From Aerosakkonema funiforme BLCC-F2 (GTDB lineage: Bacteria; Cyanobacteriota; Cyanobacteriia; Cyanobacteriales; Aerosakkonemataceae): a stretch of 26,008 bases of DNA. The notes beneath the pieces are model-generated. The model worked only from the letters and a program-made list of their open reading frames with translations, did not search any database and was not told where the DNA came from. Both the position numbers and the translations under genes were made by a program. Below, in pieces: positions 9,854 through 26,008 of the stretch (positions are counted from its first letter, which is position 1; each line of letters begins with the position of its first letter). The DNA is taken from NCBI RefSeq assembly GCF_041929185.1, contig NZ_JBHFNO010000043.1, one strand, 5' to 3'.

Positions 9854-9854
9854 G

Positions 9855-10893: not shown

Positions 10894-11050
10894 CTCCCCG
10901 TCCACGGGGAGGGGTGAAACAGGTGTAGGGGGAGGGGTGAAACAGGTGTAGGGGGAGGGGTGAAACAGGTTCGCGGGGAGGGGTGAAAGAGGTGTAGGGG
11001 GAGGGGTGAAACAGGTTCGCGGGGAGGGGTGAAAGAGAGAGGGGCTTCAG
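10894..11050. repeat. six tandem 23-bp G-rich units (AGGTGTAG/AGGTTCGC + GGGGAGGGGTGAAAC); first unit preserves a CTCCCCG-loop-GGGGAGGGGTGAAAC hairpin resembling the CRISPR repeat 3' half
   Basis: Units end at 10920, 10943, 10966, 10989, 11012 and 11035 (period 23). G-tracts GGGGAGGGG x6 on the + strand. Lies in the convergent gap between the fibrillin-like gene and the last gene of the cas operon. Confidence 0.8.
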
Positions 11051-11113: not shown

Positions 11114-11734
11114 CTAATCAACGCATTTGACGCTTTTGATACTGCCATTTTTTAAGGCTGTTATTTTTACTTTTACGATCTGCCCTTGCTGGAGAGAACT
11201 CGCTTTTTTCGGTTCTTTTTCAGTCAATTTAATCGCGCCTAATATTTGATATGTCACTTTATTACCTGCAATGCCAATAACTTGGGCATCTAAGATTTGA
11301 TCGATCGCAAAATCTTGAGATTGCGTCACTTGTAAAATTTCGGCTTGCCGAGTAGATTCTATGACAGGAGCGGTAATTTCGCCGATCGGTCCCGCTTCTT
11401 TGTAGTAGCGCATTAAGCGAATTGACCACCCTAAAATTTGCAGGATAGCTGTTACATCATTTTGATAAAGTTGCAAATATTTGGTGCAAGTTCTTTCTAT
11501 GCTATCATAATATCCAGATGTTTTTTGGCTATATCCGATTCTATTACCTTGGCGGGAAAGTGTTTGCAGATAACTAAAAAATTTCGTGCCGGCATTTTCG
11601 CGATCGCTATAAGCGCGAAGATATGCCATCACTTTACCCAATTCATTTACATCAGTCTCTTCTTTGACCAATGTTTGAGCAATTCCGTGAGCAATTTGCC
11701 ATTGAATTTCGGTTAAATCGGTGGTAGTAAACAT
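11114..11734 (-). CDS. hypothetical protein, terminal gene of the type III operon (alpha-helical N-terminal half, Lys/Val-rich beta-rich C-terminal tail)
   Basis: 206 aa. Start abuts the stop of the upstream RAMP gene (11735), implying co-transcription. No recognisable motif; N-half resembles small alpha-helical Cas11-type subunits only in composition. Confidence 0.55.
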   Translation of the reverse strand: MFTTTDLTEIQWQIAHGIAQTLVKEETDVNELGKVMAYLRAYSDRENAGTKFFSYLQTLSRQGNRIGYSQKTSGYYDSIERTCTKYLQLYQNDVTAILQILGWSIRLMRYYKEAGPIGEITAPVIESTRQAEILQVTQSQDFAIDQILDAQVIGIAGNKVTYQILGAIKLTEKEPKKASSLQQGQIVKVKITALKNGSIKSVKCVD

Positions 11735-12775
11735 TTAATAAACTCCGTCTATAGGTTCTCTAGTTGTCGGCCATTGCAGAACTTGTTGTAACTCTTTCAA
11801 TTGTTGAGATTGTACTAATTGGGTGGATGCCGATCGCACGGCTTTTTGGATGAATTCCTGGAGGGAATTACCAGTCAGAGAAGGGGGTGAGGTGTTGTAA
11901 TTGCAATAGCGATCGCGCCATTCTTTCTCTTTTTCAATCCGCTGAATTTCTGTTACTTCAACTACCATCGTTCCCATACCAATTGGTTTACCGCCTCCCA
12001 CTTTTAAAGCAATGGGATTTTTACTATCTTGTCCTAACACAATCAACAGCGTTCCCAATTCGGCTAAACTTAAATTCCTAAATCCAATTTGGGTAGTAAA
12101 TATCAATTCTTTTCCCGCTTGTTGAACTGGAATACCTTGTTGTCCTTTGTCAATCGATTTAACAAAATGGTAATAAAACTTGCGTCCAGCTATTCTTCCA
12201 TTTATATAGTAGCCGGCACGTTGTTTTCTGGGTGCATAAAGTGAGGGCATAAATCCCACACTCCACTGTGCATTGTTGAGAATCGCATCAGAAAAGCGAA
12301 TCAAACCTTGCCAATCCATTGCCCCAAAAACTTGACAAGCCGGACAAAGTTTAGTATTATCTTTACATTCCCGATAACCATTCGGAATTTGACTCTGTTC
12401 TGCCTTAGTTTTGCACAAACAACTGCGCGTAATTGCTTCATAAGCAGAACGCACAACGCCTTTAAGGGAACTTCCCGGAACGATCGACTGTCGATCGCGT
12501 CCAACGGCAGTTTTGATTAGGGGGATATTTTTGGCATTTCCCGATAAGTCGCTACCCATTGCGACAACGCCAGAAGCGACAAAAGTAGCGGTTTTCACCG
12601 TTAAGCGCAGAAAGATTGTACCGCTAATGCGATCGCTTTTAAACCGATCTTGTCCAATTGGTTTATCTCGCGGTGGCGGCTGACTGGGTAGAGAAATGAG
12701 TTGATAAGGTTTTGGATTAGCAGTTTCTGGTGCAGGATTAGGTTGAGGGCGTCGAATTGGTCGATTGTTAGTCAT
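11735..12775 (-). CDS. Cas7-group RAMP with zinc finger (Csm5-like subunit of a type III-D complex)
   Basis: 346 aa. RAMP G-rich loop IVPGSSLKGVVRSAYEAI, Zn finger CKDNTKLCPACQVFG, C-terminal glycine loop KVGGGKPIGMG. Pro-rich N-terminal extension. 4-nt overlap with the upstream gene. Confidence 0.7.
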   Translation of the reverse strand: MTNNRPIRRPQPNPAPETANPKPYQLISLPSQPPPRDKPIGQDRFKSDRISGTIFLRLTVKTATFVASGVVAMGSDLSGNAKNIPLIKTAVGRDRQSIVPGSSLKGVVRSAYEAITRSCLCKTKAEQSQIPNGYRECKDNTKLCPACQVFGAMDWQGLIRFSDAILNNAQWSVGFMPSLYAPRKQRAGYYINGRIAGRKFYYHFVKSIDKGQQGIPVQQAGKELIFTTQIGFRNLSLAELGTLLIVLGQDSKNPIALKVGGGKPIGMGTMVVEVTEIQRIEKEKEWRDRYCNYNTSPPSLTGNSLQEFIQKAVRSASTQLVQSQQLKELQQVLQWPTTREPIDGVY

Positions 12776-13287
12776 GGGGATATCTCAACAGTGAGAGCGA
12801 TAAAATGTACCGTGGAAGTTTCGCGATCGATGAAATAACGTTGAGCTATTTTAACTTTGTTTGGATTATTCTTTTCATCCTTAATTATGGGATTGAGAGC
12901 GTCAGGTACAATGAATTTTTGGGGAAACCGAGTTTCATCGGGACGATAAATGTAAGCAGGTCGTTGTTCTACTTTCCACTCTATCTTTTTATCTTGTTCC
13001 TTTTTTTTATCTCGTTCCTCATCAATAGAAGTGAAAGCAGAATCTTTACCAGTTATTGACAGCAATAATACTGAATAACCTTGACCTTGTTGTTTCCAAC
13101 GCAATTCGCGATCGCAATTAAACATTTGTCCTTCTGGACTGGGAAATTCTTTTAATTCCTCTACAATTCCACTGACGCGATCTTGCCACCGAAGAAAGTA
13201 ATAAGTAGGCTTTTTCGCAAATTTATCTAGCAATTTTCTGAGATCTTCAGATGAGTCAACTTGTTTAATACCTACAAAAGGATTCAT
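12772..13287 (-). CDS. hypothetical protein occupying the position of csx19 (all1473 family) in type III-D operons
   Basis: 171 aa. ATGA-type 4-nt overlaps with both flanking RAMP genes (13284 and 12775). Lys/Glu-rich central segment. No motif recognised; assignment is positional only. Confidence 0.5.
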   Translation of the reverse strand: MNPFVGIKQVDSSEDLRKLLDKFAKKPTYYFLRWQDRVSGIVEELKEFPSPEGQMFNCDRELRWKQQGQGYSVLLLSITGKDSAFTSIDEERDKKKEQDKKIEWKVEQRPAYIYRPDETRFPQKFIVPDALNPIIKDEKNNPNKVKIAQRYFIDRETSTVHFIALTVEISP

Positions 13288-14234
13288 GCTGCTGTCCCTT
13301 GCAATATTTCACACCAAGCTTCTACAGTTTGCGAGAACAATTCACGCACTTTATCGCTCCCTTCCCAACTCTGTTGCACGCCAAAATTAAACTCAATTGG
13401 TGTTGTTTTTGGTGATGTTTCTTTCAGATCGTTAGGGGGAAAACCATAGCGGTTTCTTTCTTCATCTTCCAGAAACATTCCCGCACCCAATAAGGAAGTA
13501 AGCGGCCATTTTGTTTCTGTGCCGATCGCGCTAATTTGTTCATCTTTTATAATACAGCCAGGATATTGGACAACGGCTGAATTTAACTTAACTTCCACCA
13601 ATCCCAAACCGCGAGATTTAGCGAAACCTAATCCAAACCAACCTTGATTTAAATCGCGCAATACTAAACCGATTAATCCTAATTGTGCAAGGGTAAAATT
13701 TCTGAGATGAATTTTGGTATGAAATTCTCCGGCGGTACAAACTTGAAAATTAAATGGCCCTACAGCGACCGAACCAAACACTCTGTCAATAGCTACGCCA
13801 TTGCGTTCTTCAATTTTCAACAATTTGGGATTAACCGGATAAGCATCTTCTATTCTGACGCGACTGGCGATCGCAGTATTGCCAAACATTTGATCGGTAA
13901 AAGAAGACAATTTATAGATATCTGACGTTGATTTATTTTGCAGATATTCGTATTTGTCATTGAGTGGATCGTTTGCCCATAAACTATTTGCATTATTGGG
14001 GTCGCGGCGATCGCTTCCCACCGTCCGCACAATGCGTTCCGCATGGGCGCGAATAGCACCTTTGAGAGAACTTCCGGGTAAGTAAATTGTCCGTCCTCCG
14101 CCGTGATAGGTTTCCACAAATTCCATATCCGGTTTCGTAGGGTCAGCACCTTCTTTGCCAGATTTAATTAAGATAGGGCCAGCAGGTGTGATGGTTAATT
14201 TTATTGTACATTGATTGACAAATCGTTTAAACAT
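13284..14234 (-). CDS. csm3: Csm3 (Cas7) RAMP backbone subunit
   Basis: 316 aa. YLPGSSLKGAIRAHAERI (G-rich loop 1), QMFGNTAIASRVRIEDAY, NGVAIDRVFGSVAVGPFNFQVCTAG (thumb), GFAKSRGLGLVEVKL (glycine loop). Confidence 0.8.
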   Translation of the reverse strand: MFKRFVNQCTIKLTITPAGPILIKSGKEGADPTKPDMEFVETYHGGGRTIYLPGSSLKGAIRAHAERIVRTVGSDRRDPNNANSLWANDPLNDKYEYLQNKSTSDIYKLSSFTDQMFGNTAIASRVRIEDAYPVNPKLLKIEERNGVAIDRVFGSVAVGPFNFQVCTAGEFHTKIHLRNFTLAQLGLIGLVLRDLNQGWFGLGFAKSRGLGLVEVKLNSAVVQYPGCIIKDEQISAIGTETKWPLTSLLGAGMFLEDEERNRYGFPPNDLKETSPKTTPIEFNFGVQQSWEGSDKVRELFSQTVEAWCEILQGTAA

Positions 14235-15126
14235 TGCTGTTTTCCTCGGCAGTGGTATTAGCAGACATGAAAGTTCTTAAATGGGTAATCAAAGCATTTG
14301 TCCATTCCTGTTTGAGGAAAGCAATTCTTTCTGGATAACATGAGTAAATATCCATTTTTCCGTTAACCAGATTTTGCAGGTAATTTAGTAATAATTCTGG
14401 ATCGTCTTCTGCATCAAACCATTGCATTTCTTTAATATCCAATTTCACTACACCCAATCCGCGAGAACGTCCGCCGCCTAACGGAATTTGTTCGGTTTCA
14501 AATTGGTGTAACCCGATGGTTAATAAACCTAATTCCCAAGGTTCGGCGTTTTCAACTACTGCTTTAAACTCAAATTGCGTTCCTGCCGGTACAACTTGAA
14601 AATCGTATAATTTCGCATCAGCAGCAGTTTCGGTATCGCGATCGATCGCAACTCCATCTCGTTCTTGATATTGTCCAAACCAACTATCTGGTAATACCGT
14701 TAAATCGCGCACTTGAAATTTACTCGCAATCCAAGGAGAACCGAATAAGTGAGAAGCTAAATCGGTTTCTTTTAAAATTGCAGTGGTGAGGTCAAAATCA
14801 TCTTTGTTTTCGTCCTTAAGTTTCTTGATTTCATCAGCTTTTAGCGACCATTCCTCCTCTACGGCGGGATTGGCGACTAATTTGCGTAGGGCAATGCCCT
14901 TGTTGAAGGCATCGCTTCCCACAATCCCGCGCAGGAAGCTTTCCAAACGCGATCGCAAAGCACCTTTAAAACTCGACCCCGGAATTAAAGGTCGTCCCAC
15001 CGCATCTTTAATTACTGGTAAATCGGAACCGATTGGTTCTGTGGAACGTCCCGCGCCAATTCGCAAAGCGGTGATAGTGGTGAGAGTTCCGCTGATTTCC
15101 AAACGACTTTTGAAAGTATCAAACAT
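14227..15126 (-). CDS. csm3: Csm3 (Cas7) RAMP backbone subunit, second paralog
   Basis: 299 aa. LIPGSSFKGALRSRLE, HLFGSPWIASKFQVRD, DGVAIDRDTETAADAKLYDFQVV, GGGRSRGLGVVKLD. 8-nt overlap with the downstream csm3. Confidence 0.8.
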   Translation of the reverse strand: MFDTFKSRLEISGTLTTITALRIGAGRSTEPIGSDLPVIKDAVGRPLIPGSSFKGALRSRLESFLRGIVGSDAFNKGIALRKLVANPAVEEEWSLKADEIKKLKDENKDDFDLTTAILKETDLASHLFGSPWIASKFQVRDLTVLPDSWFGQYQERDGVAIDRDTETAADAKLYDFQVVPAGTQFEFKAVVENAEPWELGLLTIGLHQFETEQIPLGGGRSRGLGVVKLDIKEMQWFDAEDDPELLLNYLQNLVNGKMDIYSCYPERIAFLKQEWTNALITHLRTFMSANTTAEENSNV

Positions 15127-15140
15127 AGTTTACCTTATTT

Positions 15141-15707
15141 TCAATTTAAACTCAACCAGCTAAACACATCTTGCGCGGATAACTGTAAATCTTCCAGAGA
15201 ACTTAACACGGGTAAATTGTCTTGATTTTCCTTAGTTTCTGGTTGTTGACCTGGACGAAAAACCATGATAATTTTCTCTTCAGGATCGATTAACCAGCCT
15301 AATTCTGTTCCCGCATTTAAACAAAAAAGGATGTTACCAATCACGCGAGTTGAGCTTTGTTCTGGGGAAAGAATTTCAATTACCCAATCTGGATGAATGG
15401 AAAAAGAATTTTCGATTTCGCCGTTAGCATCTAAAGGGATACGTTGCCAAGAAAAAACGCTGATATCTGGCACAATTGAACGACCGCCAAAGGTGCAACG
15501 CAATTCTGTAAAAGCACTAGCTAAACGATTAGGTTCGCCTACCCTATTAATTTCGGTTGAGAAGCGAGTTTGCAATCGGCTATGTTTTCCTTTTGGCATA
15601 GGTTTTTGATAGATTTGTCCGTCTATATATTCACTAGCTGGTTTAGTTTCTGGGAGTTGCAGAAATTCGGCTAATGATATTTTGGTGGAAAGTTTTGTGG
15701 ATGTCAT
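15141..15707 (-). CDS. Uma2-family (DUF820) PD-(D/E)xK endonuclease inserted inside the type III effector operon
   Basis: 188 aa. Hallmark Uma2 motifs LAEFLQLPE...EYIDGQI (N-terminal) and VPDISV...PDWVIEILSPEQS (PD...EIxSP core). 29-nt and 14-nt gaps to the flanking csm2 and csm3 genes on the same strand. Confidence 0.75.
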   Translation of the reverse strand: MTSTKLSTKISLAEFLQLPETKPASEYIDGQIYQKPMPKGKHSRLQTRFSTEINRVGEPNRLASAFTELRCTFGGRSIVPDISVFSWQRIPLDANGEIENSFSIHPDWVIEILSPEQSSTRVIGNILFCLNAGTELGWLIDPEEKIIMVFRPGQQPETKENQDNLPVLSSLEDLQLSAQDVFSWLSLN

Positions 15708-15736
15708 GGTTGAACAATTGATAATTTAAAAACAAA

Positions 15737-16144
15737 TTACTTGGAATTGATGTATTTCAAGTATCGAGCGCCATACCCCAAGTAGCGGCGAATTAATTCT
15801 AACCAAATAGATTTGAAATCAGAACCAGAAATTTCTTTGTGAATAACATTAGCTTTCTGCTTGATTTGAGTATCAATATCATTGACAATTTTTGCTGCTA
15901 ATGAATTGTCACCTCTTCCCCATTTCTTATCGCGCCCGACTTGATAGCGCAAGAAATTTTTAATCACTTCTGGGCTATCGGTTGTATCTGCAACGCGCAC
16001 TAAGTTGCGAAATTGAGTTTCTTGTAAGTCGCCATAGGATTGACGATTGTCTAAAGCTGCTTGAATCCATAACACTAAATCATCTTCAGCAAGACGGATG
16101 TTTTTTTGTACTTTGAGTTCTATCTGTTGTTCTGCTAGGTTCAT
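15737..16144 (-). CDS. csm2: Csm2 (Cas11) small subunit
   Basis: 135 aa, all-alpha composition. LQETQFRNLVRV matches the Csm2 LTTSQ(I/L)RK motif; NFLRYQVGRDKK and RRYLGYGARYLKY match the (V/F)xYQxGRE and C-terminal aromatic/Gly motifs of Csm2 (compared with the S. thermophilus Csm2 sequence recalled from memory). ATGA overlap with the upstream RAMP gene. Confidence 0.6.
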   Translation of the reverse strand: MNLAEQQIELKVQKNIRLAEDDLVLWIQAALDNRQSYGDLQETQFRNLVRVADTTDSPEVIKNFLRYQVGRDKKWGRGDNSLAAKIVNDIDTQIKQKANVIHKEISGSDFKSIWLELIRRYLGYGARYLKYINSK

Positions 16145-17376
16145 ACAGCGTTTTCCCGAAATACTAAATGAAATTCATTGCAAACCTGAACTTGACCGAA
16201 TCCTTCCGAAGTACGTTCCCCAACTCCTTTTAATTCTAAATTCCCTAATGCTCGATACCAAATGTCTGGCGAACTTGTACTAAACAAATACACGGCACCT
16301 TTATTGGTAACTAATTCTACATCTTTCATCAATCCCCATGCGGTATTCCAGCCAGAACGATAATCGTAGCTGGTATATGCAACGTGCAGTTTTAAAGAAG
16401 GGTCATCGATCGCAGCATACTTTTTCAACATTCTATCATTAATTACTGTGGTACGTTGCCAATTTTCAGTAAAAATGGCATCGGATTGTAAATCAATGGT
16501 GAAATAGGTGCGGTCTAATAGCAAATCTTGCTGGGTTTCGCCAAAGATTTCTCCCCACTTTTGCCATCTTTTTTTAAGTTCATCGTTAAACTTGGCGATC
16601 CGAGGTTCTACTGTCGCTGCGGCGTTACCTATGTCTGCGATAATTTCCGCTTTTCCTAATCCCCGCGATGCAGAACCACCCAATCGAAAAGAATGGCGAT
16701 TGATAAAATCAGTTAGGTTATTAGCTAATTCCTCATTGTCTAATAAAATTTTGCTGCGATAGGTAGCAGGTTCCTCTTTTCCTTCCACTTCATTTAATAC
16801 TTCAATGCTGTAAAGCACCTGTTCTTCAGAAGTGGCGCGACGGCGGTTGATACCGACTCGCGTTAGCAGTCGAGTCGTGGTTGAAAGTTGATAGTAATTG
16901 TTACCGACACAAGCATAAAAACCGCTATAAGGTTCTACTCTTCCACAGTCTACCGGACAATTTGGATCGTAAGGATGGTTGTAACCTCCGGCGCAAAAAC
17001 GATCGATCAACGTATCGAAGACACCGTGCTTTTTGGGATCTGTTTTAAAACCGGGATTGGTTTTAGAACTAACTGCTGTGGCGGGGAGTACCTGAATTGG
17101 ATTAGGTAGCAAGGTTGGTTTATCTTGAATTTTGGCGATCGCAGGATAACCATTCTGGAAAATTGCCGCATTTTCGCCTAAGAATAAGCTGTGGAAGTCG
17201 TCACCTGCTTCTGGTGTGGGGGATTCAGATTCGCGGAGGATTCCAGATGCGATCGCACCCCTGATTACCGATGCGGGTATATAGCTTTCGGCTTCACTGA
17301 CGGAACCACCAGGCTTTTGTCGTCCAATGGCTAACGGTGAAGCTGCTGTAATTGTTAGTTGAATTTCGTAAGTCAT
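16141..17376 (-). CDS. Cas5-group RAMP (Csx10/Csm4-like large RAMP subunit)
   Basis: 411 aa. N-terminal LTITAASPLAIG...YIPASVIRGAIASGIL (Cas5/Csm4-type start) and C-terminal glycine loop GGSASRGLGKAEI. The size fits Csx10 of type III-D. Confidence 0.65.
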   Translation of the reverse strand: MTYEIQLTITAASPLAIGRQKPGGSVSEAESYIPASVIRGAIASGILRESESPTPEAGDDFHSLFLGENAAIFQNGYPAIAKIQDKPTLLPNPIQVLPATAVSSKTNPGFKTDPKKHGVFDTLIDRFCAGGYNHPYDPNCPVDCGRVEPYSGFYACVGNNYYQLSTTTRLLTRVGINRRRATSEEQVLYSIEVLNEVEGKEEPATYRSKILLDNEELANNLTDFINRHSFRLGGSASRGLGKAEIIADIGNAAATVEPRIAKFNDELKKRWQKWGEIFGETQQDLLLDRTYFTIDLQSDAIFTENWQRTTVINDRMLKKYAAIDDPSLKLHVAYTSYDYRSGWNTAWGLMKDVELVTNKGAVYLFSTSSPDIWYRALGNLELKGVGERTSEGFGQVQVCNEFHLVFRENAV

Positions 17377-17378
17377 TC

Positions 17379-17411
17379 GATTTTGGATTTTAGATTTTGG
17401 ATTTTGGATTG
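17379..17411. repeat. STRR-like heptamer tandem repeat (GATTTTG x4) in the 51-bp gap between two cas genes
   Basis: gattttggattttagattttggattttggatt read directly. Confidence 0.6.
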
Positions 17412-17427
17412 TCTATGTCGGATATTT

Positions 17428-18141
17428 TTAAGTTTTTAAAGCATTCCAAACGTTATCATCAATTTTTAGGTCTGGAAATTTCCAATGCAACCAACCTAAA
17501 CCACCTGATTTACTACCACCTAAAGCATGGATGTGATGTAATGCTGCGAATAAAAGCGGTTTAGTATAGGCGGGACAATCCGGTAAAAAATGAATGTGAC
17601 TGGAAAATTCGAGTTGGATATTTGCGGGAGATGTTTCTAAGAGAAATAGCTTTTGGTCTTCGGAAGTACGACGGCGGCGATTGATGGTAACGCCGGGACG
17701 CAATACTTCTGGGAGATTTTCTGCTTTTTCGTTGCAAATGAGGTCATCAAATAGCAGGCGCGAAGGTAAGGCGGGATTGCCAAATATTTGACAAATCAGA
17801 CAGTGATAACGTTCATCTCCTTCTACTTGATAATCTGGACGATGAAATTTTATTTCTTCGTTTTCTGGAAATTTTGCGCGTTGGGGACACATGGTTTGGG
17901 GGTTGGGAGATTCGCAGATTTTCCAATGCAAACCTCTGGCTATTTTTTCGCATTCGTGACGCAGGCGACCTTTGAATTGAGAAGCGGGAATTAGTAATTT
18001 TCCGGTTGCTGTGCGAACAATTGGTTTATCTGCTAGTGTTCCCGATGTACCGCCTGCGCCAACGCACAAAGCACTGTCTATTACCGCAGTTATGGATAGA
18101 GATTCTGTTGAATTTTGCCTTAAGTTTTGGAGTTGGATCAT
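17428..18141 (-). CDS. Cas7-group RAMP with zinc finger (Csm3-like, first backbone subunit after cas10)
   Basis: 237 aa. LLIPASQFKGRLRHECEKI, Cys cluster CESPNPQTMCPQ...HCLICQIFG, glycine loop GGSKSGGLGWLHW. Confidence 0.7.
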   Translation of the reverse strand: MIQLQNLRQNSTESLSITAVIDSALCVGAGGTSGTLADKPIVRTATGKLLIPASQFKGRLRHECEKIARGLHWKICESPNPQTMCPQRAKFPENEEIKFHRPDYQVEGDERYHCLICQIFGNPALPSRLLFDDLICNEKAENLPEVLRPGVTINRRRRTSEDQKLFLLETSPANIQLEFSSHIHFLPDCPAYTKPLLFAALHHIHALGGSKSGGLGWLHWKFPDLKIDDNVWNALKT

Positions 18142-18245
18142 CAGTTTCCTCCCGTTGATATTGTATCTTGAATGCTTGCAATATCCATCGGTTAAGAATA
18201 TTTAGACCTTGGAAGGGCGAAGCATTCGGACAGAAAACTTAGGGT

Positions 18246-20774
18246 TTAAGTAGATAAATTGTCGCCCGAATGCTTCGCCCCTACATTTAACCTATCTGTA
18301 TCTTGAATTTTGGCGTCAAGGGTTTGCGAAACTTCGATAAAAGGATAAAGGTCTACTAACTCGCGCCAAATAGTTTCGTAAGTGGACTTTTTTAATAAGT
18401 TTAAAATCACACTTTGTAACTGAACTTGACTGGTTGGTAAAAGTTTTAAGGAAAACATTAGAACTACTTTCCTGAAGATTCCAGCCTTCTCAAAAAGCCA
18501 AGGGGCTAAGTAACCATCATTTGTTGCTGCTTGACACCAAGCATCCTCAAAATTTTCTTTTAGTAACTGTTGTTCTTTTGAACCCAAACGCACGCGGAAA
18601 TAACGATAGTTGAGGATGGCGGTGTTTTTGCCTCGTTCCAGTAAACTGCGAATTTGATAGAGTTGCGATCGCGGAAATCCCGACTGTTTTATTGCTTTGG
18701 CTGTTTCCAGCAGTCCGCCTAGTTCATGCAGCGTGTAAGGTGCAGCATGAAGTTTGAGTTTTTGGTTATCTTTGATCGATTTGGTTAAACCTTCTCGGCG
18801 GAACGAACTGATATTTGATGATATCATTGTAACTGATTTCATCACCAAAAAGTCAACCGTACCGCCATAATAATGATAGTGTTTTTTCAACTCTTTAGCA
18901 CGCGCTTTCGCAGATTTGAGTAACTGTTCCGTTAATTTTTGAGCGTAATAAATCGGCGTGGTGTAGGCGGTAATCAAAACACCGATCGACATACTCAATT
19001 GACATTCGGAGGGGTTCTGTGGCGGCGGTTGGTAACGATGACAGGCGATTGATTTCGCATCATCTCGCTGGGATGCGGGAATTTCATATCTTTTTCCTAA
19101 ATCAGTTAATCGCTTCTCGAATTCTTCACCGATCGTTTGCGCGATCGCCAATGCTTTATCTGCTGGTACAATCAGCAATACATCGTCACCGCCAATAGTT
19201 AAAATTTCAAAGGGATGAATGACAACACCATTTCGATGTTGATGTTCTTTTCCAGTTAAGCCACTTAACCGATGGGGCTTTAGATGCGTGAGAGCTTCAT
19301 AAACTGAATTTTCCGTTGCATCGAAAATATCTTCACTAAACTGAGCGTAATCCGCTGGAGTTTTAATCTTTTGGATGTAGCCACCCATATTGTTACCATC
19401 TGCATAAATGTAAGCAACAAATCCATTGCTAGCATTGCCGATTTCTGTGAGCGATCGCGCTTGCTGAATTCCGCTATTGCTAAAACCTGCGTAATATTTG
19501 CGCCAACGTTCTAACTTGAGTAAAAACCGCTCAAACTTATTGACCCAACTTTCTACTTCTCCGGGTTGCCATTCAAGTTTTGTGCGTTCGTACCATTCTC
19601 GTTCTTGTTCTTCCTTCGAGATTTGACCTATTATTCGCTTACGCGCTAACGCTTCCGAAAACCAAGGTTCGTTGGGAAGCTCAGTCGCATGAAAAATAGC
19701 AGAACGGCAATCCCCTTCATCCCTTTTCAAGTAAGGATGAGTATCAAAAATCGGCGGGTAGCAACGGCTGGGACGTTCTGAACCAGGTAAATCGTTACCG
19801 CTGCGTCGGTGATTAAATTGTGCGGCTAATTTACCTGCTAATTCGTTAAAACTTTTGCGATTATTAAATAATTCTCCCCAATTTTCTTCTCCTTCTAAGC
19901 TACCGAAGTAAGCTTTTACTAAATCATTGTTGCGATTTTTTTCGTGATTGTTGCGATTTTTTTCGTACCAATCTAGCCAGAGTGTTTGTTCAATTGGATC
20001 GCGCAGCAACCCAAAACGCACTTCTAGTAATTTGAAGCTATCCCCAACAGCACAAGAGTTAGCCGTTAAAGTTTGTTCGGTATAACGCCGTTCAATCGCA
20101 TTCGCTAAATCGTCGATGTAAGCAGCAGGACAAAATGCGAGGATATTACCACCCGTTGAATAGATTATCAGTTCTGGGATGAGAGCATCTGAAAGCTTGA
20201 GATTATCTGCATCACCGGGAAAGCAGTTATCTAACCACTGTTTTACTTCTTCGCAGTGTGCTGTGTAACGGGGAGACTCTGGCGGTTTTCCGAAAAAAGC
20301 GGGTAAGTCGATCAGATTGATTCGATCGAGTAGTGCAGAAGCACCCCGGATGTCTTGCAGCTTAGCCGCTTCAAAAACGTAACCTTTAATTTTGGTAGCA
20401 CCGCCATAAACTAAGCCGATGGGAGTATTCCACGCTTGAGGATTTTCCCGTTGCAAGGCTTCAAAGGTTTGACGTAGTTTTTCAGCGGTGTCTGGAAACT
20501 TCAGGTTATCGATTTTTTGCGCTTGTTCTAGAAATGGTTGAATTGCAGCTGGAATACTTTTTCCTTCTTTGAGAGTCTGTTTAATTGTCTGCAACTCGGA
20601 TAGGTCGAACAGAGGTGTGGGTCGATCGCCCCAGGCGAGACACCAAGCGATTCCTATCGAAAGCTTCGTTGATATTGTCATCATACCATTTTGCAAAGTT
20701 TTCACTCTAAAGGACTTTTTTCCAAATCTGGGTAATGCCAACATTCCCAAACTCTTTGCTGTATTTTGACACAC
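18246..20774 (-). CDS. cas10: Cas10 (Csm1/Cmr2-type large subunit) with intact GGDD cyclase palm motif and no recognisable N-terminal HD nuclease motif
   Basis: 842 aa as listed. The start at 20774 is GTG; alternative ATG starts lie at residues 11 and 31. Palm motifs AYIYADGNNMGG and ILTIGGDDVLLIVPAD, Cys cluster, GASALLDRI. The first 150 residues contain no H-D dyad in HD-domain context. Confidence 0.85.
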   Translation of the reverse strand: MCQNTAKSLGMLALPRFGKKSFRVKTLQNGMMTISTKLSIGIAWCLAWGDRPTPLFDLSELQTIKQTLKEGKSIPAAIQPFLEQAQKIDNLKFPDTAEKLRQTFEALQRENPQAWNTPIGLVYGGATKIKGYVFEAAKLQDIRGASALLDRINLIDLPAFFGKPPESPRYTAHCEEVKQWLDNCFPGDADNLKLSDALIPELIIYSTGGNILAFCPAAYIDDLANAIERRYTEQTLTANSCAVGDSFKLLEVRFGLLRDPIEQTLWLDWYEKNRNNHEKNRNNDLVKAYFGSLEGEENWGELFNNRKSFNELAGKLAAQFNHRRSGNDLPGSERPSRCYPPIFDTHPYLKRDEGDCRSAIFHATELPNEPWFSEALARKRIIGQISKEEQEREWYERTKLEWQPGEVESWVNKFERFLLKLERWRKYYAGFSNSGIQQARSLTEIGNASNGFVAYIYADGNNMGGYIQKIKTPADYAQFSEDIFDATENSVYEALTHLKPHRLSGLTGKEHQHRNGVVIHPFEILTIGGDDVLLIVPADKALAIAQTIGEEFEKRLTDLGKRYEIPASQRDDAKSIACHRYQPPPQNPSECQLSMSIGVLITAYTTPIYYAQKLTEQLLKSAKARAKELKKHYHYYGGTVDFLVMKSVTMISSNISSFRREGLTKSIKDNQKLKLHAAPYTLHELGGLLETAKAIKQSGFPRSQLYQIRSLLERGKNTAILNYRYFRVRLGSKEQQLLKENFEDAWCQAATNDGYLAPWLFEKAGIFRKVVLMFSLKLLPTSQVQLQSVILNLLKKSTYETIWRELVDLYPFIEVSQTLDAKIQDTDRLNVGAKHSGDNLST

Positions 20775-21974: not shown

Positions 21975-22571
21975 TTACGAACTCGCCATCGCACCTTGCT
22001 GCAACTCTCTCACCACCCATTCCAATTCCTCGACCATCCAACTGCTACTCAACTGGCGGTAAATCTGCAATTGTTCTTGATAAAGCCATAACACCCCTTC
22101 CTTACCGCCTCGGAAATAATGCCAAATTTCTTCGCCAAATTGCCTAAAATTAACCAACATAGTCCGCGCATTGTGCAACTTATCCGCCAGCATCACGCGC
22201 TGGACTGGCGGACAAGCATCGCGTAACTGTTGGAGATATTGCTGTTTGTGTTCCCTCCAAGTCGGATATAAACTCGGTTCTGGCTCGGTGCAACCTTCTA
22301 TAATATGGAAAACGCGATCGCCAAATCGCTGCAAAATTTCCGCCTTCGTTACTTCTCCCCCTCGGTCTTCCAGCGCATCGTGCAATAAAGCAGAAATTGC
22401 CTCATCTTCATCTCCTCCATCTTCCAACACCAAAGCCGCGACGCTCAACAAATGGGCAATATAAGGAGTACCTGTAATTTTCCGTTGTTGGTCGCCATGA
22501 AGTTGCGCCGCATATACCAACGCTTCCTGAAAACGCGAAGTTAAAATTGTCAAACACCGTTCATTCTTCAT
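21975..22571 (-). CDS. small alarmone hydrolase (SAH; Mesh1/SpoT-like HD-domain (p)ppGpp/(p)ppApp pyrophosphohydrolase family)
   Basis: 198 aa. GTPYIAHLLSVA...AISALLHDALED...ILQRFGDRV...MLADKLHN align motif-by-motif with human Mesh1 (GTPYINHPIGVA...AALLHDTVEDT...HFGAQV...KLADKLYN; sequence recalled from memory). ATG lies 11 nt inside the 3' end of the upstream WYL gene (overlap in a different frame). Confidence 0.8.
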   Translation of the reverse strand: MKNERCLTILTSRFQEALVYAAQLHGDQQRKITGTPYIAHLLSVAALVLEDGGDEDEAISALLHDALEDRGGEVTKAEILQRFGDRVFHIIEGCTEPEPSLYPTWREHKQQYLQQLRDACPPVQRVMLADKLHNARTMLVNFRQFGEEIWHYFRGGKEGVLWLYQEQLQIYRQLSSSWMVEELEWVVRELQQGAMASS

Positions 22572-23976
22572 AATTTTTCCATTCTCGTTCGATTTCTTTC
22601 CTCGCCTGTTCTCGTAATTCCACAGGGAGGAGAATTTCTACATTCGGTCGCCACGCACGCAAGCGCTGCATTACATTAGGATCGCCTTGGCGATATTGCG
22701 CTTGGTAATAAGCATCTTGGGGAGAACGTTTGCGCCAAATATTTAACATCTTTTGTTGTTGTTCTCCCTTTAAGTTCTGCCGAATTAATCGTTCTACTTC
22801 TTGATATGCCACTCGCGCAAAGGTAGCATGGCGCATAGTATTGCGGATGTAGCGATTATCCCACTCGCGATCGAACCTCAATAGTAGCAGTTGTGCGGGT
22901 TGATAGTAATCAAAACCCCAAACTTCTGCGATCGCTAATTGGATATCATCGGGAATAGGCAGAGTATTCTTTTGATATCGCTGTTTCAGCGCCACTGGAA
23001 CTTGCGAATCTTCCCAACTCAAAGGGATCGAATCCTGAATGCGATCGAGTCGATAATTGCGAAAATCTAATTTTCCCGATTCGTCTTGCGGAACTTCGCC
23101 AAACGCACACAGATACGGCCCTCTCTGATAATAATAAATGCAAACCGGATAAACTACCACCGACAAAGTTGTTTGCCAAACCGCACTTTCATAACTTAAC
23201 AAAATCGGCGGTACAACTTCCTTTTGCCAAAGTTCCCGCAGTTGTGCTTGCCATTCCTCCACGCGATCGATCGAGTCTTGGGGAATCACATATTCCAGAT
23301 GGATAAAAAAGCGCTGCTGACCATTCAATCGCGTCGAAAGATTATCTGCGATCGCAGCCAAATCCGGTTGCGTGAGAAAATCCAAATTGTAAGCTATCAG
23401 ACGAGAATCTGATTTTTGGATCGAACTCGGCGTCCGTGGATATTTCTTAACCCGATAATACCGATTTCCTTGGCGTTTCAGCCACCCGATTTCTATCAAA
23501 ACTTGCAAATCGCCATAAAGCGATCGTCTTGTCAAGCCAAACAAACGAGTATCGTGCAACAATTCTTTAAGGTTATCCGGTAACAAATGATGTTCCCGCA
23601 AAGATTGTTCAAACGATCGCTCTTTTTCCTGCACTTCCGGCTTCCCTAATTCCCCTTTCCACTTTGACTGAGTTAAATTGAAATTAGAGCCAAATAACCA
23701 AGCCGCAACAGTTTTGGCACAACGGCATTTCGGGTCGTGCAACGCCGGAATTTCTTCTTCTCTAGTATGAGTCGCAGTAAAAAAAGCATCTCGCCATTCA
23801 GGATAAGTAAAATTTTCCGGCAAATTCAACTTAATGCCGGCTTCCCCATACAGAAAGTGCAGCCACACCCACAACCGCACCGCCTGTAGCAATCTTTGTT
23901 TTAAATCTCCCCGCGCCAGCCATTGCAGTAGTTCCACGCGAGGAGGTTCATTCCAAAAGGGGCCGATCGTTTCCAA
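22561..23976 (-). CDS. WYL-domain transcriptional regulator (wHTH + WYL + C-terminal extension), CRISPR-associated type
   Basis: 471 aa. wHTH-like LLHDTRLFGLTRRSLYGDLQVLIEIGWLKRQGNRYYRV. WYL-domain signature VVVYPVCIYYYQRGPYLCAFGE...FRNYRLDRIQ (YL...RLDRI). Translationally coupled to the SAH gene. Confidence 0.7.
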   Translation of the reverse strand: METIGPFWNEPPRVELLQWLARGDLKQRLLQAVRLWVWLHFLYGEAGIKLNLPENFTYPEWRDAFFTATHTREEEIPALHDPKCRCAKTVAAWLFGSNFNLTQSKWKGELGKPEVQEKERSFEQSLREHHLLPDNLKELLHDTRLFGLTRRSLYGDLQVLIEIGWLKRQGNRYYRVKKYPRTPSSIQKSDSRLIAYNLDFLTQPDLAAIADNLSTRLNGQQRFFIHLEYVIPQDSIDRVEEWQAQLRELWQKEVVPPILLSYESAVWQTTLSVVVYPVCIYYYQRGPYLCAFGEVPQDESGKLDFRNYRLDRIQDSIPLSWEDSQVPVALKQRYQKNTLPIPDDIQLAIAEVWGFDYYQPAQLLLLRFDREWDNRYIRNTMRHATFARVAYQEVERLIRQNLKGEQQQKMLNIWRKRSPQDAYYQAQYRQGDPNVMQRLRAWRPNVEILLPVELREQARKEIEREWKNYEE

Positions 23977-24089
23977 GCTACTCTCCCGATTTCAGCGATT
24001 TGCCTTCCTTTCTAAGTATGCCTCATCTTGGAAGCAGGTGCTTCCACCAGTTTGATACAGTAGCAATAACTCAATGAACCTATTATTTA
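23977..24089. promoter_or_regulatory. divergent intergenic region between the WYL regulator and csx3-like gene, with small palindrome GGAAGC-AGGT-GCTTCC
   Basis: 113 bp between divergent starts; palindrome at about 24034-24049. Confidence 0.3.
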
Positions 24090-24446
24090 ATGTCAGCCAT
24101 TCAATTACAACTGTTTCGGGAGCAAACCCAGTCAGGTCTGACCTACCAACACCTGCACATCCAAATCAATACACCGGATGGACTGATTGCACCAGCCGAC
24201 CTGAAAAATTTATCCCTACCGGAGGAAATGGTCTGGAGTCAAGGCGTTGTCATTGAAGGTAAAGCGCCAATTTGGTTGTACGCCTATTTAGTTCACGCTT
24301 GTCACCCCGCCGCTTGGGTAGCTTGCTTCGACCCCCGCTTAGAAGGTGCAGTTATAATTGCTACACACAGTCGCCAAGTCGCACTCGGAGATATTCTCAA
24401 ACTCAACTTACCCGCAGCCATATTTCGCAAAACAACAGGTACGTAG
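24090..24446 (+). CDS. csx3: Csx3/Crn3-like cyclic-oligoadenylate ring nuclease (stand-alone, catalytic His/Asp/His pattern present)
   Basis: 118 aa, the size of stand-alone Csx3. GKAPIWLYAYLVHACHPAAWVACFDPRLEGAVIIATHSRQVALGD has H-(+9)-D-(+12)-H spacing similar to the His60/Asp69/His80 Mn site of A. fulgidus Csx3 (numbers recalled, not checked). Adjacent to type III genes; has a paralog at 25014. Confidence 0.5.
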   Translation: MSAIQLQLFREQTQSGLTYQHLHIQINTPDGLIAPADLKNLSLPEEMVWSQGVVIEGKAPIWLYAYLVHACHPAAWVACFDPRLEGAVIIATHSRQVALGDILKLNLPAAIFRKTTGT

Positions 24447-24465
24447 TGATAATAAAAACTTATTA

Positions 24466-24978
24466 ATCGTAGGGTGGGTTAGGCACGGGCAATAATTTCA
24501 ATACTTTCGATCGATAATTAAGTTCCCGTGCCGTAACCCACCATCCCACCTACCTGTAACATTGACAAACATTTTCCACCATAAACCCTCTAGACCCGAA
24601 GATTGTACCCTATCAACCCAAAAGAACCAAGCGTTAAAACGCAACAACATACGAAGGTCTGTAAATCTAGCTCTTTCAAGTTTATGCTTCGCTTTTGTAA
24701 CAGACAATTGTGATGGTGGGTTACGGCACGGACAGTTAATTATTAGTTTTTTGAGAGAAATTATCGCCCGTGCCTAACCCACCCTACAGGTTACAAAAAG
24801 CTATCAACCCAAAAGAACCAAGCGTTAAAACGCAACAACATACGAAGGTCTGTAAATCTAGCTCTTTCAAGTTTTTGGTTCGCTTTTGTAACAGAAAATT
24901 GTGATGGTGGGTTACGGCACGGACAGTTAATTATTAGTTTTTTGAGAGAAATTATCGCCCGTGCCTAACCCACCCTAC
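24466..24978. mobile_element. second cluster of the same MITE-like hairpin family: one forward copy, then a 191-bp unit duplicated in tandem, each ending in an inverted copy
   Basis: Forward end ATCGTAGGGTGGGTTAGGCACGGGCAATAAT at 24466-24542. Reverse ends ...ATTATCGCCCGTGCCTAACCCACCCTAC at 24715-24786 and 24906-24977. CTATCAACCC... unit starts at 24610 and 24801. Internal segment (TAGCTCTTTC...GTAACAG...TGTGATGGTGGGTT) is homologous to the left cluster at 10060-10135. Confidence 0.5.
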
Positions 24979-25013
24979 TGCTAAATCCAAAAAACTCAAC
25001 AAAAGGAATAAAA

Positions 25014-25946
25014 ATGAATACGATCGCCTTACAAAAACAAGTTGAACTGCAAGTCACCGAACTGAAAACCGCACAAGGAAGTTATCAAACTTTGGCGATT
25101 AGCTTAGTGATGTTCCAGGAACTAATAAAAACTGATGTACTCGCACAATTGAAACTTCCTGACGAACTAGACTTGAGCAGAGAAGTAATTTTATACGGTA
25201 TAGCTCCTACTTGGTTGTATGCCAATTTAGTAGAACGCTGTTGGCAAGCGCCTTGGATAGGATGCTATACAGCGCCAAAAAATCAAATTGTTGTAATTCA
25301 AAGTCGGATATCAACAATAAGTATAGGCGATGCGATACCTGTATTGCTTAACAACATTCCTTGTCCGGCAATTTTAATAGGTGGTTCGCCTGACAGCGGC
25401 AAAAGCGTTTTATCGAATGCTTTGCGTTTTAATTTGATGAAAACCGGAGCATTCAAACGAGTATTTGTACATCGCGCTTCTTGGGATGGTGAGGGAAATT
25501 GGGTTTACGAAGTAGCGAATCGGGATTTAGCTAAAAAGCTGATTGTAGAAAACGAGTTTCGATTGCACGAAAATCCCGAAACGGCGAAGTTAATACCGAA
25601 ATTCTTTAAATATCATAGCTCGGCGGTACAGAATTTGCGGGAAGTTGTCGATTTGGTTTTGGTTGATGTGGGTGGTAAACCGCAGCAAGAGAAAGCGCCT
25701 CTGGTCGCACAATGTACGCACTATATAATTATTAGTAAAGAATCAGATGAGATTCCCAAATGGCACGAGCTTTGTCATCCAACTTTGCAGCCGTTAACGG
25801 TGATTCACAGCGTCCGACAAAAACGAGAAGAAGTTTGGCAAAAACAACCTTTTTTGGAAATCATCGACGGACGCTGGTGCGAAGGTGAAATCCAGTCTGT
25901 TCCCGATATCTTGCTGGAAAATGTGCTTAGGGTTTTGCACGCCTAG
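25014..25946 (+). CDS. Csx3-like N-terminal domain (catalytic His residues substituted) fused to a P-loop NTPase domain
   Basis: 310 aa. N-terminal YGIAPTWLYANLVERCWQAPWIGCYTAPKNQIVVIQSRISTISIGD is clearly paralogous to the 24090 gene, but its His positions are E/W/R. Walker A GGSPDSGKSVLSNAL and Walker B-like LVLVDVGG. Confidence 0.5.
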   Translation: MNTIALQKQVELQVTELKTAQGSYQTLAISLVMFQELIKTDVLAQLKLPDELDLSREVILYGIAPTWLYANLVERCWQAPWIGCYTAPKNQIVVIQSRISTISIGDAIPVLLNNIPCPAILIGGSPDSGKSVLSNALRFNLMKTGAFKRVFVHRASWDGEGNWVYEVANRDLAKKLIVENEFRLHENPETAKLIPKFFKYHSSAVQNLREVVDLVLVDVGGKPQQEKAPLVAQCTHYIIISKESDEIPKWHELCHPTLQPLTVIHSVRQKREEVWQKQPFLEIIDGRWCEGEIQSVPDILLENVLRVLHA

Positions 25947-25978
25947 AGCGCCAGCAGACCCGGATTTGGTACAACGCG

Positions 25979-26008
25979 GTGCGATCGCTCTCATGAGAGC
26001 GATCGCAC
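25979..26008. repeat. perfect 30-bp palindrome containing two HIP1 octamers (GTGCGATCGCTCTCATGAGAGCGATCGCAC), terminator-like hairpin at the window edge
   Basis: Reverse complement is identical. Begins 33 nt after the stop of the Csx3-NTPase gene. The window ends, so any T-tract is not visible. Confidence 0.6.

Follow-up and report, generated by a model that had tools for sequence, protein, structure and literature searches.

Csx3-Type Proteins of Type III CRISPR Systems

Since 2018, the Csx3-AAA proteins have figured among the accessory families of type III systems, and in the literature to 2025 their function is unassigned. The family was defined by Shah et al. 2019 (cluster 35, CYB_0599), where control of the ATPase by cOA was proposed (PMC6546367); it has Slr7080 as a member and corresponds to the Csx3' of Athukoralage et al. 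2020. Slr7080 co-sediments with CRISPR3 effector complexes (PMC8136920), and a passage of PMC9676260, citing Shah et al., states that deletion of slr7080 leaves plasmid interference in Synechocystis unimpaired. Much insight into the ring nuclease itself comes from AfCsx3, the activity of which is abolished by the exchanges H60A and D69A and strongly reduced by R71A and H80A (PMC7371418). [quoted passage not shown] Ring nucleases are found only together with cA4 signalling; they occur also in loci without a recognised effector, and 31 loci have been counted that contain a ring nuclease and no known effector (PMC12409355).

Organization of the Locus

The window, which is the whole stretch of 26,008 nucleotides from the filamentous cyanobacterium Aerosakkonema funiforme BLCC-F2 that was analysed, contains two genes of the Csx3 type (Table 1), both of which are named crn3 by PGAP. 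The upstream gene stands alone, and the downstream gene encodes a Csx3-like domain fused to a P-loop NTPase. The fusion is a member of the known Csx3-AAA accessory family and not the founder of a new one: it matches the PADLOC model PDLC01045 "Csx3-AAA" with an E value of 9.3e-65 over model positions 7-285 of 286, that is, over practically its full length, and it adjoins the type III-D cas operon at 11114-20774. An NCBI entry with 100% identity to it is titled [quoted passage not shown]. The window ends 62 bp past the fusion gene, and other contigs encoding exactly this protein are only 1 kb long and bounded by repeats.

Table 1: Coordinates of the features in the 26,008-nucleotide window.
Feature	Position	Strand	Remarks
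Rest of type III-D effector operon	11114..18141	-	Csx7 genes, Csx10, Csm2/Cas11, RAMP genes, Csx19, Csx21, inserted Uma2 gene
Cas10 of type III-D operon	18246..20774	-	GGDD cyclase motif ("FEILTIGGDDVLLIVP"); no HD domain
SpoT/RelA-type HD hydrolase (HD_4)	21975..22571	-	PF13328, E 7e-23; recurrent neighbour of the module
HTH-WYL regulator	22561..23976	-	divergent from csx3; TIGR03985, E 9.6e-89; PADLOC HTH-WYL, E 1e-162
Stand-alone csx3/crn3	24090..24446	+	118 aa; catalytic set H57/H60/D69/R71/H80 intact
MITE-like nested inverted-repeat elements and 191-nt tandem duplication	24469..24978		between csx3 and fusion gene
Csx3-AAA family gene	25014..25946	+	310 aa; degenerate Csx3-like domain and P-loop NTPase
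Csx3-fold domain	25035..25349	+	residues ~8-112; E, W, T, P, R replace H57, H60, D69, R71, H80
SIMIBI-class P-loop NTPase domain	25362..25943	+	residues ~117-310
Walker A GGSPDSGKS	25380..25406	+	residues 123-131; G124, S128, G129, K130, S131 invariant
Walker B / G3-like LVLVDVGG	25653..25676	+	residues 214-221; D218, G220, G221 invariant

In orthologous pairs, the distance between csx3 and the fusion gene is -32 to +84 nt in 14/17 loci. Here it amounts to 573 nt by the same measure (intergenic space, 567 bp), and the odd gap is due to a 510-bp MITE-like insert. An earlier note, made from the nucleotide sequence alone, had placed a MITE cluster between the two genes, and this is borne out by the nested inverted repeats found at 24469-24787 and the tandem duplication that extends them to 24978. 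The outer terminal inverted repeat GTAGGGTGGGTTAGGCACGGGCAATAATTTC lies at 24469-24499, 24757-24787, and 24948-24978, and the inner repeat at 24514-24561, 24696-24743, and 24887-24934. The 17-mer GGGTGGGTTAGGCACGG is present in six copies in the window against none expected; three of these lie outside the insert near 9882-10198, starting at 9882, 9971, and 10182.

The HTH-WYL gene is found beside the module in 14/16 type A, 3/3 type B, and 27/28 type C loci (the architecture types are those of the fusion and its relatives, discussed below), and also on pSYSA and on an Allocoleopsis plasmid. The HD_4 gene neighbours the module in 6/18 type A, 3/3 type B, and 1/28 type C loci as well as on pSYSA, and is thus enriched where the P-loop is without an attached catalytic Csx3 (10/22 loci versus 1/28). 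The earlier description of the system as HD-less holds, since Cas10 has the GGDD but no HD motif. No CRISPR array was found in the 26-kb window, where a 23-nt tandem repeat at 10905-11037 is without spacers, and a scan of 23900-26008 for promoters and terminators returned nothing over the shuffle background.

The Two Csx3 Domains

The stand-alone ORF matches the Pfam model Cas_csx3 (PF09620) with an E value of 1.2e-32, scores 91.9 bits against TIGR02579, for which the curated cutoff is 55.4, and matches AfCsx3 (3wzi) with an E value of 7e-13. Mapped onto AfCsx3, the numbering of which is used throughout (the PDB chain index is the native number plus 6), all five of the residues H57, H60, D69, R71, and H80 are kept. 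The His/Asp/His pattern that had been noticed before in this copy is therefore present as H57/H60/D69/H80, at the coordinates and in the peptides given at that time, and is joined by R71. The pattern IEGKIHHDRH is common to 16/17 orthologous stand-alone genes, and every catalytic residue is conserved in 100-102 of the 104 homologues of the stand-alone family. By sequence, the ORF is a bona fide Crn3/Csx3, predicted to be a Mn-dependent, cA4-specific ring nuclease that would cleave cA4 to A2-P. It is the closest relative of the catalytic fused domain of type C, with 46% identity, versus 31% to the degenerate domain. The C-terminal tail LNLPAAIFRK was considered as a remnant of the strand with which the P-loop domain begins; no support for this came from the alignment, and the tail matches the linker between the domains in the triple fusions described below.

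The Csx3 domain of the fusion is related to its stand-alone neighbour with 34% identity over 109 amino acids (E 2e-16). Residues 35-108 match Cas_csx3 with an E value of 2.2e-18 (66 bits), the match to AfCsx3 has an E value of 1.6e-5, and the score against TIGR02579, 46.7 bits, is under the curated cutoff. The AF2 model of the 310-aa protein (pLDDT 91.2, pTM 0.87) has the Csx3 fold in this domain, for which the nearest relative of solved structure, next to AfCsx3, is the Cat1 sensor domain. Positions 57/60/69/71/80 are occupied by E/W/T/P/R, with a K one residue past position 71; this agrees with the E/W/T/R previously read at the His/His/Asp/His positions and adds the change of R71. All three cA4-contacting side chains of AfCsx3 are changed as well (Y for S44, I for R46, P for R71), so cA4 binding by the fusion is uncertain. 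Loss of the catalytic residues is a family-wide trait: of 120 homologues, 17 have His at position 57, 18 at 60, and 3 at 80, and the residues found instead do not make up another conserved motif. D69 and R71 are retained in about half of the degenerate domains (e.g., in L001 and L007), and H57, H60, D69, and R71 in a few homologues (e.g., P0006, P0016, P0025, P0052). Conserved are the fold, the core G45-x-P-x-W, I22 (107/120), and an aromatic F or Y at position 44 (106/120).

The NTPase Domain

The NTPase is of the SIMIBI class (MinD/ParA/BioD/SRP-like) and not an AAA+ ATPase, the family name notwithstanding. Its Walker A motif is of the form GxxxxGK[ST] and its Walker B motif of the form hhhhDxxG; the best structural neighbours are MinD (13.4), CTP synthase (13.0), and ParA (12.9), and Foldseek adds SRP, GPN, and MeaB. 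The AAA+ superfamily was rejected because fold and family HMM did not agree with it and the nearest structures are those of SIMIBI proteins. MinD and ParA proper have a deviant Walker A motif, KGGxGK[ST], with a signature lysine. At the position of this lysine all homologues have S or P (GG[SP]P[DN]SGKS), which excludes the domain from that family. As in SIMIBI NTPases in general (MinD/ParA, CTP synthase/BioD, NifH, Get3, GPN-loop, SRP, BY-kinases), Walker A reads GxxxxGKS and Walker B hhhhDxGG, and a motif R-A-x-W-D-G-E-G-N stands in what we take to be the place of the D-x-D-P-Q-G-N of ParA. Unlike these families, the domain is without a family match at the sequence level and has additionally conserved C234-x-H236, W250, and S266. 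The intact Walker motifs reported earlier for the fused copy are invariant in 95 homologues and across all four architectures (types A-D); the NTPase is under selection.

Pairing of the Genes and Natural Fusions

Among related loci, which are cyanobacterial and contain type III genes, a degenerate fused domain is in 17/17 cases immediately preceded, on the same strand, by an intact csx3. In type C, a sister clade in which a fully catalytic Csx3 is fused to the same P-loop, a separate csx3 is found in 0/27 loci. The association of pairing with the state of the fused domain has a Fisher p of 1.5e-12, for loci that are not phylogenetically independent. Spacing is operon-like, and in several genomes the two reading frames overlap or touch each other. 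Furthermore, single proteins of the composition Csx3-Csx3-P-loop are found (P0007, P0068, P0077, P0107, P0110, P0114; loci L005, L020, L022), in which Pfam detects two Cas_csx3 stretches; by MAFFT, the stand-alone sequences align to the middle domain, and six sequences are left for the N-terminal one. Neither these triple fusions nor the P-loop-Csx3 proteins of Chloroflexota contain an intact Csx3. Over these loci, the catalytic Csx3 has repeatedly been separated in nature from a dead one joined to the NTPase. Slr7080 could not serve as reference for the catalytic type, because no Csx3 was detected in its N-terminal domain either by Pfam Cas_csx3 or by purpose-built HMMs.

Proposed Function

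From the identities, motifs, pairing, and fusions described above we infer, with about an even chance of being right, a two-gene type III-D accessory module in which a dead Csx3 would act as sensor, stacking on cA4 would activate the NTPase, and Crn3 would reset the system. Upon binding of target RNA, the GGDD cyclase of Cas10 would become active and make cA4. This would be sandwiched between opposite faces of stacked Csx3-type dimers, as has been shown for AfCsx3; the sensor domain of Cat1 is glued into filaments in the same way. Since the dead domain would be unable to cut its ligand, it could serve as sensor and assembly module, joining the P-loop domains of adjacent subunits. For SIMIBI NTPases, the typical switch to the active state is dimerisation that depends on nucleotide. 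The output might be hydrolysis of NTP, or else the reaction of a kinase or transferase. Eventually, the intact Crn3 would remove cA4, possibly while docked directly on the fused domain. This explanation draws on the family matches, on the catalytic residues being kept in the stand-alone and lost in the fused copy, on pairing, spacing, and natural fusions, on the invariant P-loop motifs and the cyclase motif of Cas10, as well as on the fibres and trans rescue of AfCsx3 and the cA4 literature (PMC12409355). The earlier note had arrived at a dead sensor too, which is in line with the family-wide catalytic loss, the invariant P-loop, and the HD-less Cas10, but the sister subfamily keeps a catalytic Csx3 on the same P-loop. 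A dead sensor is therefore not required for the function of the family, and the conserved theme is Csx3 plus P-loop. The triple fusions and the Chloroflexota proteins, lacking any intact Csx3, argue against the proposal as well, and so does the statement on slr7080 in PMC9676260.

The type C loci are also an argument for a regulated ring nuclease, a possible but rather doubtful alternative in which the degenerate domain docks active Crn3 in a heteromer or hetero-stack and the P-loop NTPase tunes cA4 turnover, coupling it, for example, to ATP/GTP status or to the Cas10 complex. With a catalytic Csx3 on the P-loop in 27/27 of them, a ring nuclease joined to the P-loop is the arrangement seen most often, and the closest relative of this catalytic domain is the stand-alone Csx3. 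Gene overlap and triple fusions point to physical association, the co-sedimentation of Slr7080 with effector complexes (PMC8136920) and the unimpaired interference stated in the passage on slr7080 would fit, and those degenerate domains that retain D69 and R71 would complete a composite site together with the H60 face of stand-alone Csx3, resembling the H60A and D69A rescue of AfCsx3 (PMC7371418). In the window, however, neither D69 nor R71 is present in the fused domain, which precludes a composite active site in this case, and the P-loop is conserved in types B and D and in Slr7080 without an intact Csx3, which argues for a role of the NTPase independent of ring cleavage. The changes at S44, R46, D69, and R71, and the aromatic residue at position 44, which leave ligand binding not assured in our preferred sensor model, would agree with a fused domain that binds no cOA and serves for dimerisation or as a scaffold only, or has a different ligand, the NTPase being constitutive or controlled transcriptionally by the WYL regulator. 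The divergence of the Slr7080 N-terminal domain beyond detection and the conserved HTH-WYL gene point the same way. We consider this improbable, given that AfCsx3 binds cA4 mostly through its main chain, that the G45-x-P-x-W core, I22, and the fold are conserved, and that the fusion strictly co-occurs with a cA4-specific ring nuclease and with type III loci, which speaks for a setting of cA4 signalling. It is very improbable that the fusion has remained a ring nuclease by way of other residues, as implied by the public annotation "ring nuclease Crn3/Csx3" that PGAP gives to both genes and as the few homologues with H57, H60, D69, and R71 might suggest. H60, D69, R71, and H80, the exchange of which abolishes or strongly reduces the activity of AfCsx3, are all changed, the substituted residues are not conserved as another motif, and the TIGR02579 score is under the trusted cutoff; on the degenerate fusion the label is probably an over-annotation.

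As an extension of the sensor model, the locus might represent a new class of type III effector, which we regard as unlikely at present. The dead Csx3 would polymerise on cA4, possibly co-stacked with Crn3, and the SIMIBI NTPase or kinase, through an output directed at nucleotides, would drive the cell into dormancy. Two co-conserved enzymes would work against this: Crn3 would remove the signal, and the SpoT-like HD protein would remove the signal or the product.

Comparison with Known Systems

That the fusion may be an effector, as the earlier note proposed, is not a new idea, since a cOA-regulated ATPase was already published for the family (Shah et al., PMC6546367), and its NTPase is not of the AAA+ type. 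Like other Csx3-AAA proteins, it has an N-terminal Csx3 and a C-terminal P-loop NTPase, is ~310 amino acids long, cyanobacterial, and encoded beside type III-B/III-D cas genes. It differs from the family at large by its degenerate Csx3 with an intact csx3 always directly upstream, a split that is undescribed in the literature surveyed, although the CARF classification of Makarova et al. 2020 may mention it. New here are the pairing rule, the Csx3-Csx3-P-loop fusions, the SIMIBI class, the likeness to the Cat1 sensor, and the gap explained by the MITE. The split into catalytic and dead Csx3, the SIMIBI class, and the Cat1 precedent sharpen the vague idea of a "cOA-regulated ATPase" into specific experiments.

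In comparison to AfCsx3/Crn3 (PDB 3WZI, 6YUD), positions 44 and 46 of the stand-alone copy are E and K, a cyanobacterial signature, and the fused domain is without H57, H60, D69, R71, and H80. AAA-Csx3 proteins (Shah cluster 67, Caur_2269 type; PADLOC PDLC01059) share the P-loop with its invariant motifs and a degenerate Csx3 domain, but the domain order is reversed, they are from Chloroflexota, and no stand-alone csx3 was seen in the loci examined. Cat1, a TIR-CARF effector (PDB 9MUD), forms filaments glued by cA4 through a sensor domain without ring-nuclease activity, and thus offers a precedent of solved structure for a Csx3-like sensor that does not cleave cA4 but stacks on it.

The Two Csx3 Copies and Their Families

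The earlier note had described two Csx3-like paralogs, one standing alone with a His/Asp/His pattern and one lacking it and fused to a P-loop NTPase; this observation is correct and statistically solid. Both ORFs are found in the predicted region and both match Pfam Cas_csx3, the stand-alone protein with E 1.2e-32 and the fusion over residues 35-108 (E 2.2e-18). On TIGR02579 they reach 91.9 and 46.7 bits, the latter under the equivalog cutoff of 55.4. The stand-alone protein matches AfCsx3 (3wzi; E 7e-13) and shares 34% identity with the fused Csx3 domain (E 2e-16). In AfCsx3 numbering (PDB chain index = native + 6), the catalytic set H57, H60, D69, R71, and H80 is kept entirely in the stand-alone copy, while E, W, T, P, and R take these positions in the fused one, which carries both Walker motifs. 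The mapped residues were found essential or important in AfCsx3, where H60A and D69A mutants are inactive and R71A and H80A strongly reduced (Athukoralage et al. 2020, PMC7371418). An NCBI entry, "CRISPR-associated protein Csx3 [Aerosakkonema]", has exactly the sequence of the fusion protein (100% identity).

The contrast of kept and lost residues is a trait of two gene families beyond one genome. Each of the five residues is retained in 100-102 of the stand-alone protein's 104 homologues. Of the 120 fusion homologues, only 17 have a His at position 57, 18 at position 60, and three at position 80. Residue counts are 60 R and 35 Q at position 80 and 54 D, 30 N, and 28 A at position 69, whereas G45 never varies and I22 is kept in 107. 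The PGAP name "CRISPR-associated ring nuclease Crn3/Csx3" on degenerate proteins (homologues P0005, P0023, P0068, P0119, and P0120, and one on the Allocoleopsis PCC 7113 plasmid, locus L065) probably over-annotates them, as they lack the catalytic residues.

Module Architectures

A genome scan gave 62 loci, and parsing with HMMs for stand-alone Csx3, fused Csx3, and P-loop yielded four architectures; Slr7080, which is more divergent, stands apart from these. Type A, that of the window, comprises 17 loci (16 fetched plus the window) with a stand-alone csx3 directly upstream on the same strand of a degenerate Csx3 + P-loop gene; the full catalytic set is present in the stand-alone protein of 16 loci and in the fused domain of none. 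Type B (loci L005, L020, and L022; proteins P0007, P0068, P0077, P0107, P0110, and P0114) is a single ORF, Csx3-Csx3-P-loop, with two Csx3 stretches detected by Pfam, both degenerate. Type C (27 loci) is a single Csx3-P-loop gene without a separate csx3, its fused domain containing H57, H60, D69, and R71 in 27/27 and H80 in 24/27 loci. Type D, P-loop-Csx3 of Chloroflexota (Shah cluster 67; 10 fetched, 9 parsed), has a degenerate Csx3. An intact csx3 lies upstream in 17/17 loci with a degenerate fused domain versus 0/27 with a catalytic one (Fisher p 1.5e-12, the loci not being phylogenetically independent). An exception to this split, otherwise clean, is the type A locus of Scytonematopsis (L012), with Y at position 60 in the stand-alone protein and H in the fused domain. 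Of the fused domains, the catalytic one of type C most resembles the stand-alone Csx3 (46% identity, versus only 31% for the degenerate domain), and the type A and B degenerate domains form their own clade in a rough NJ tree. These relationships are consistent with an active-site loss in a second Csx3 copy located between catalytic Csx3 and P-loop, from which types A and B would have arisen by gene fission or fusion.

In 14 of the 17 type A loci, the spacing of the two genes ranges from -32 to +84 nt; by this measure the window's gap, 573 nt, is the largest, which is accounted for by a 510-bp repeat insert. The intergenic space proper (567 bp) was earlier called a MITE cluster, a fair description given its nested inverted repeats and tandem duplication and the recurrence of their terminal 17-mer in three further copies near 9882-10198 (6 in total versus 0 expected). 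In public assemblies the exact fusion gene is found on 1-kb contigs only, probably because assemblies break at the MITE-like repeats.

The AF2 model of the fusion is confident (pLDDT 91.2, pTM 0.87) and has AfCsx3 as its top Foldseek match (TM 0.82), followed by SRP54, SR-alpha, FtsY, the GPN GTPase PAB0955, CTP synthase, the BY-kinases Wzc/Etk, and MeaB. An AAA+ identity was rejected and "AAA" is a misnomer, since this list has no AAA+ protein among its leading entries and the Pfam AAA_18 match is far under cutoff. The NTPase is a SIMIBI-class P-loop domain, albeit without the signature lysine of MinD/ParA. SIMIBI NTPases typically work as nucleotide-dependent dimers. Invariant in types A-D are G-P-P-x-S-G-K-S, R-A-x-[WP]-D-G-E-G, V-D-x-G-G, C-x-H, W250, and S266, which implies strong selection on the NTPase whether the attached Csx3 is catalytic or not.

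Genomic Neighbourhood

Features of the window and of related loci
Feature	Position	Strand	Remarks
PD-(D/E)XK nuclease gene (PDDEXK_11) and D12-class N6-adenine methyltransferase gene	876-2190		nuclease gene overlaps, on the opposite strand, the end of the methyltransferase gene
MITE-like element family, terminal repeat GTAGGGTGGGTTAGGCACGGGC	9854-10198; 24469-24978		two intergenic regions; one copy an 89-nt tandem repeat, 9854-10052
G-rich 23-nt tandem repeat GGGGAGGGGTGAAACAGGTGTAG	10905-11037		~5.6 copies, just downstream of csx21
Type III-D effector operon	11114-20774	-	Cas10, Csx7 genes, Csx10, Csm2/Cas11, Csx19, Csx21, inserted Uma2 gene
Uma2-family (PD-(D/E)XK) endonuclease gene	15141-15707	-	inside operon, between csm2 and csx7 gene
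139-aa ORF	21033-21452	-	between cas10 and HD gene
SpoT/RelA-type HD hydrolase (HD_4)	21975-22571	-	recurrent module neighbour
HTH-WYL regulator (TIGR03985)	22561-23976	-	divergent from csx3
Stand-alone csx3	24090-24446	+	118 aa; canonical Csx3
Nested inverted repeats, 191-nt tandem duplication	24469-24978		between csx3 and fusion gene
Fusion gene	25014-25946	+	310 aa; Csx3 domain + P-loop
Walker A, GGSPDSGKS	fusion residues 123-131		present
Walker B, LVLVDVGG	fusion residues 214-221		present
Perfect 30-nt palindrome with GCGATCGC (cyanobacterial HIP1-type motif)	25979-26008		33 nt past fusion stop codon, at window end
Degenerate Csx3-P-loop gene, L065	9004-10311		PGAP ring-nuclease name
HD gene (HD_4), L065	10574-11209
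HD gene (HD_4), Synechocystis pSYSA (L066)	2389-3105
slr7080, L066	4665-5597		RefSeq name: hypothetical

Cas10 of the type III-D operon has a GGDD cyclase motif, and the system is HD-less as previously proposed: Pfam detects no HD domain in Cas10, and the dipeptide HD is absent from about the first 160 residues of the translation read by eye. Between operon and csx3 lie the 139-aa ORF, which has no match in Pfam, NCBIfam, or PADLOC, and the HD and HTH-WYL genes. Neither a CARF or SAVED effector nor a CRISPR array is found within the window, which stops 62 bp past the fusion gene; the repeats at 10905-11037 were rejected as an array, being 23-nt repeats without spacers. The Uma2 gene also matches the PADLOC candidate PDC-S03; related loci L016 and L065 likewise have a Uma2 gene. 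The PDDEXK_11 and D12 methyltransferase genes are probably a restriction-modification pair of the same defence neighbourhood.

A divergent HTH-WYL gene adjoins the module in 14/16 type A, 3/3 type B, and 27/28 type C loci, that is, in 44 of 47 related cyanobacterial loci, and is also beside it on pSYSA and the Allocoleopsis plasmid; because this arrangement is kept, the protein probably regulates the module. The HD gene is near the module in 6/18 type A, 3/3 type B, and 1/28 type C loci and on pSYSA (1/1), thus in 10/22 loci with a degenerate P-loop-proximal Csx3 versus 1/28 with a catalytic one (p 5e-4, kinship ignored). Its presence in every fetched locus without any intact Csx3 hints at a part of the HD enzyme in signal or product turnover.

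Proposed Mechanism and Relation to Known Systems

The window locus belongs to a family that is known but uncharacterised. The fusion matches the PADLOC "Csx3-AAA" model over its full length (E 9.3e-65), which corresponds to the mainly cyanobacterial cluster 35 of Shah et al.; these authors already proposed that the Csx3 domain allosterically controls the ATPase with cOA as activator (PMC6546367), so that family and core hypothesis, though not the mechanism, count as published. As late as 2025, Csx3-AAA was described as "of unknown function" (PMC12409355). The model-organism representative, Slr7080, matches the P-loop HMM (58 bits), while in its N-terminal domain the His triad is absent and neither Pfam Cas_csx3 nor custom HMMs detect Csx3. 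Slr7080 co-sediments with CRISPR3 effector complexes (PMC8136920), and slr7080 deletion left plasmid interference unaffected (PMC9676260).

In a mechanism to which we assign about even chances, cA4 would be made by Cas10 and bound by the dead Csx3 domain through stacking, which would bring the P-loop domains side by side and turn the NTPase on; the stand-alone Crn3 would then remove cA4, possibly docking its own H60 face onto the fused domain. The earlier idea of a non-hydrolysing cA4 sensor driving an NTPase effector is reasonable, its details being only partly supported: catalytic loss and the P-loop speak for it, while S44, R46, and R71, the three side-chain cA4 contacts of AfCsx3, are also replaced in the window's fusion, whose cA4 binding would therefore need main-chain contacts or a partner. 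The same replacements speak for the rather improbable view that the fused domain is a Csx3-like scaffold without ligand binding, although its fold is modelled as that of AfCsx3.

As type C shows, a catalytic Csx3 is also compatible with the family's function. The main rival, ranked below the sensor mechanism and considered unlikely, takes the module as an NTPase-regulated ring nuclease and not an effector. Residual ring-nuclease activity of the fusion itself, for which the retention of H57, H60, D69, and R71 in a few homologues speaks, is very improbable given the five replacements.

The new content is modest and fourfold, namely the conserved split between catalytic Csx3 and dead Csx3 + P-loop with its natural fusions, the SIMIBI assignment, the association of the module with an HD hydrolase, and the link to Cat1. 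The latter is described as a TIR-CARF effector without ring-nuclease activity, whose filaments are glued together by cA4 lying between sensor dimers in a stack (PMC12162218), and AfCsx3 H60A with cA4 turns into a milky, colloidal liquid, read by its authors as extended fibres (PMC7371418). A non-cleaving Csx3-type domain on an effector is, by these examples, a known route from cA4 to assembly-driven activation; Cat1 is a solved precedent for a non-cleaving cA4-stacking sensor.
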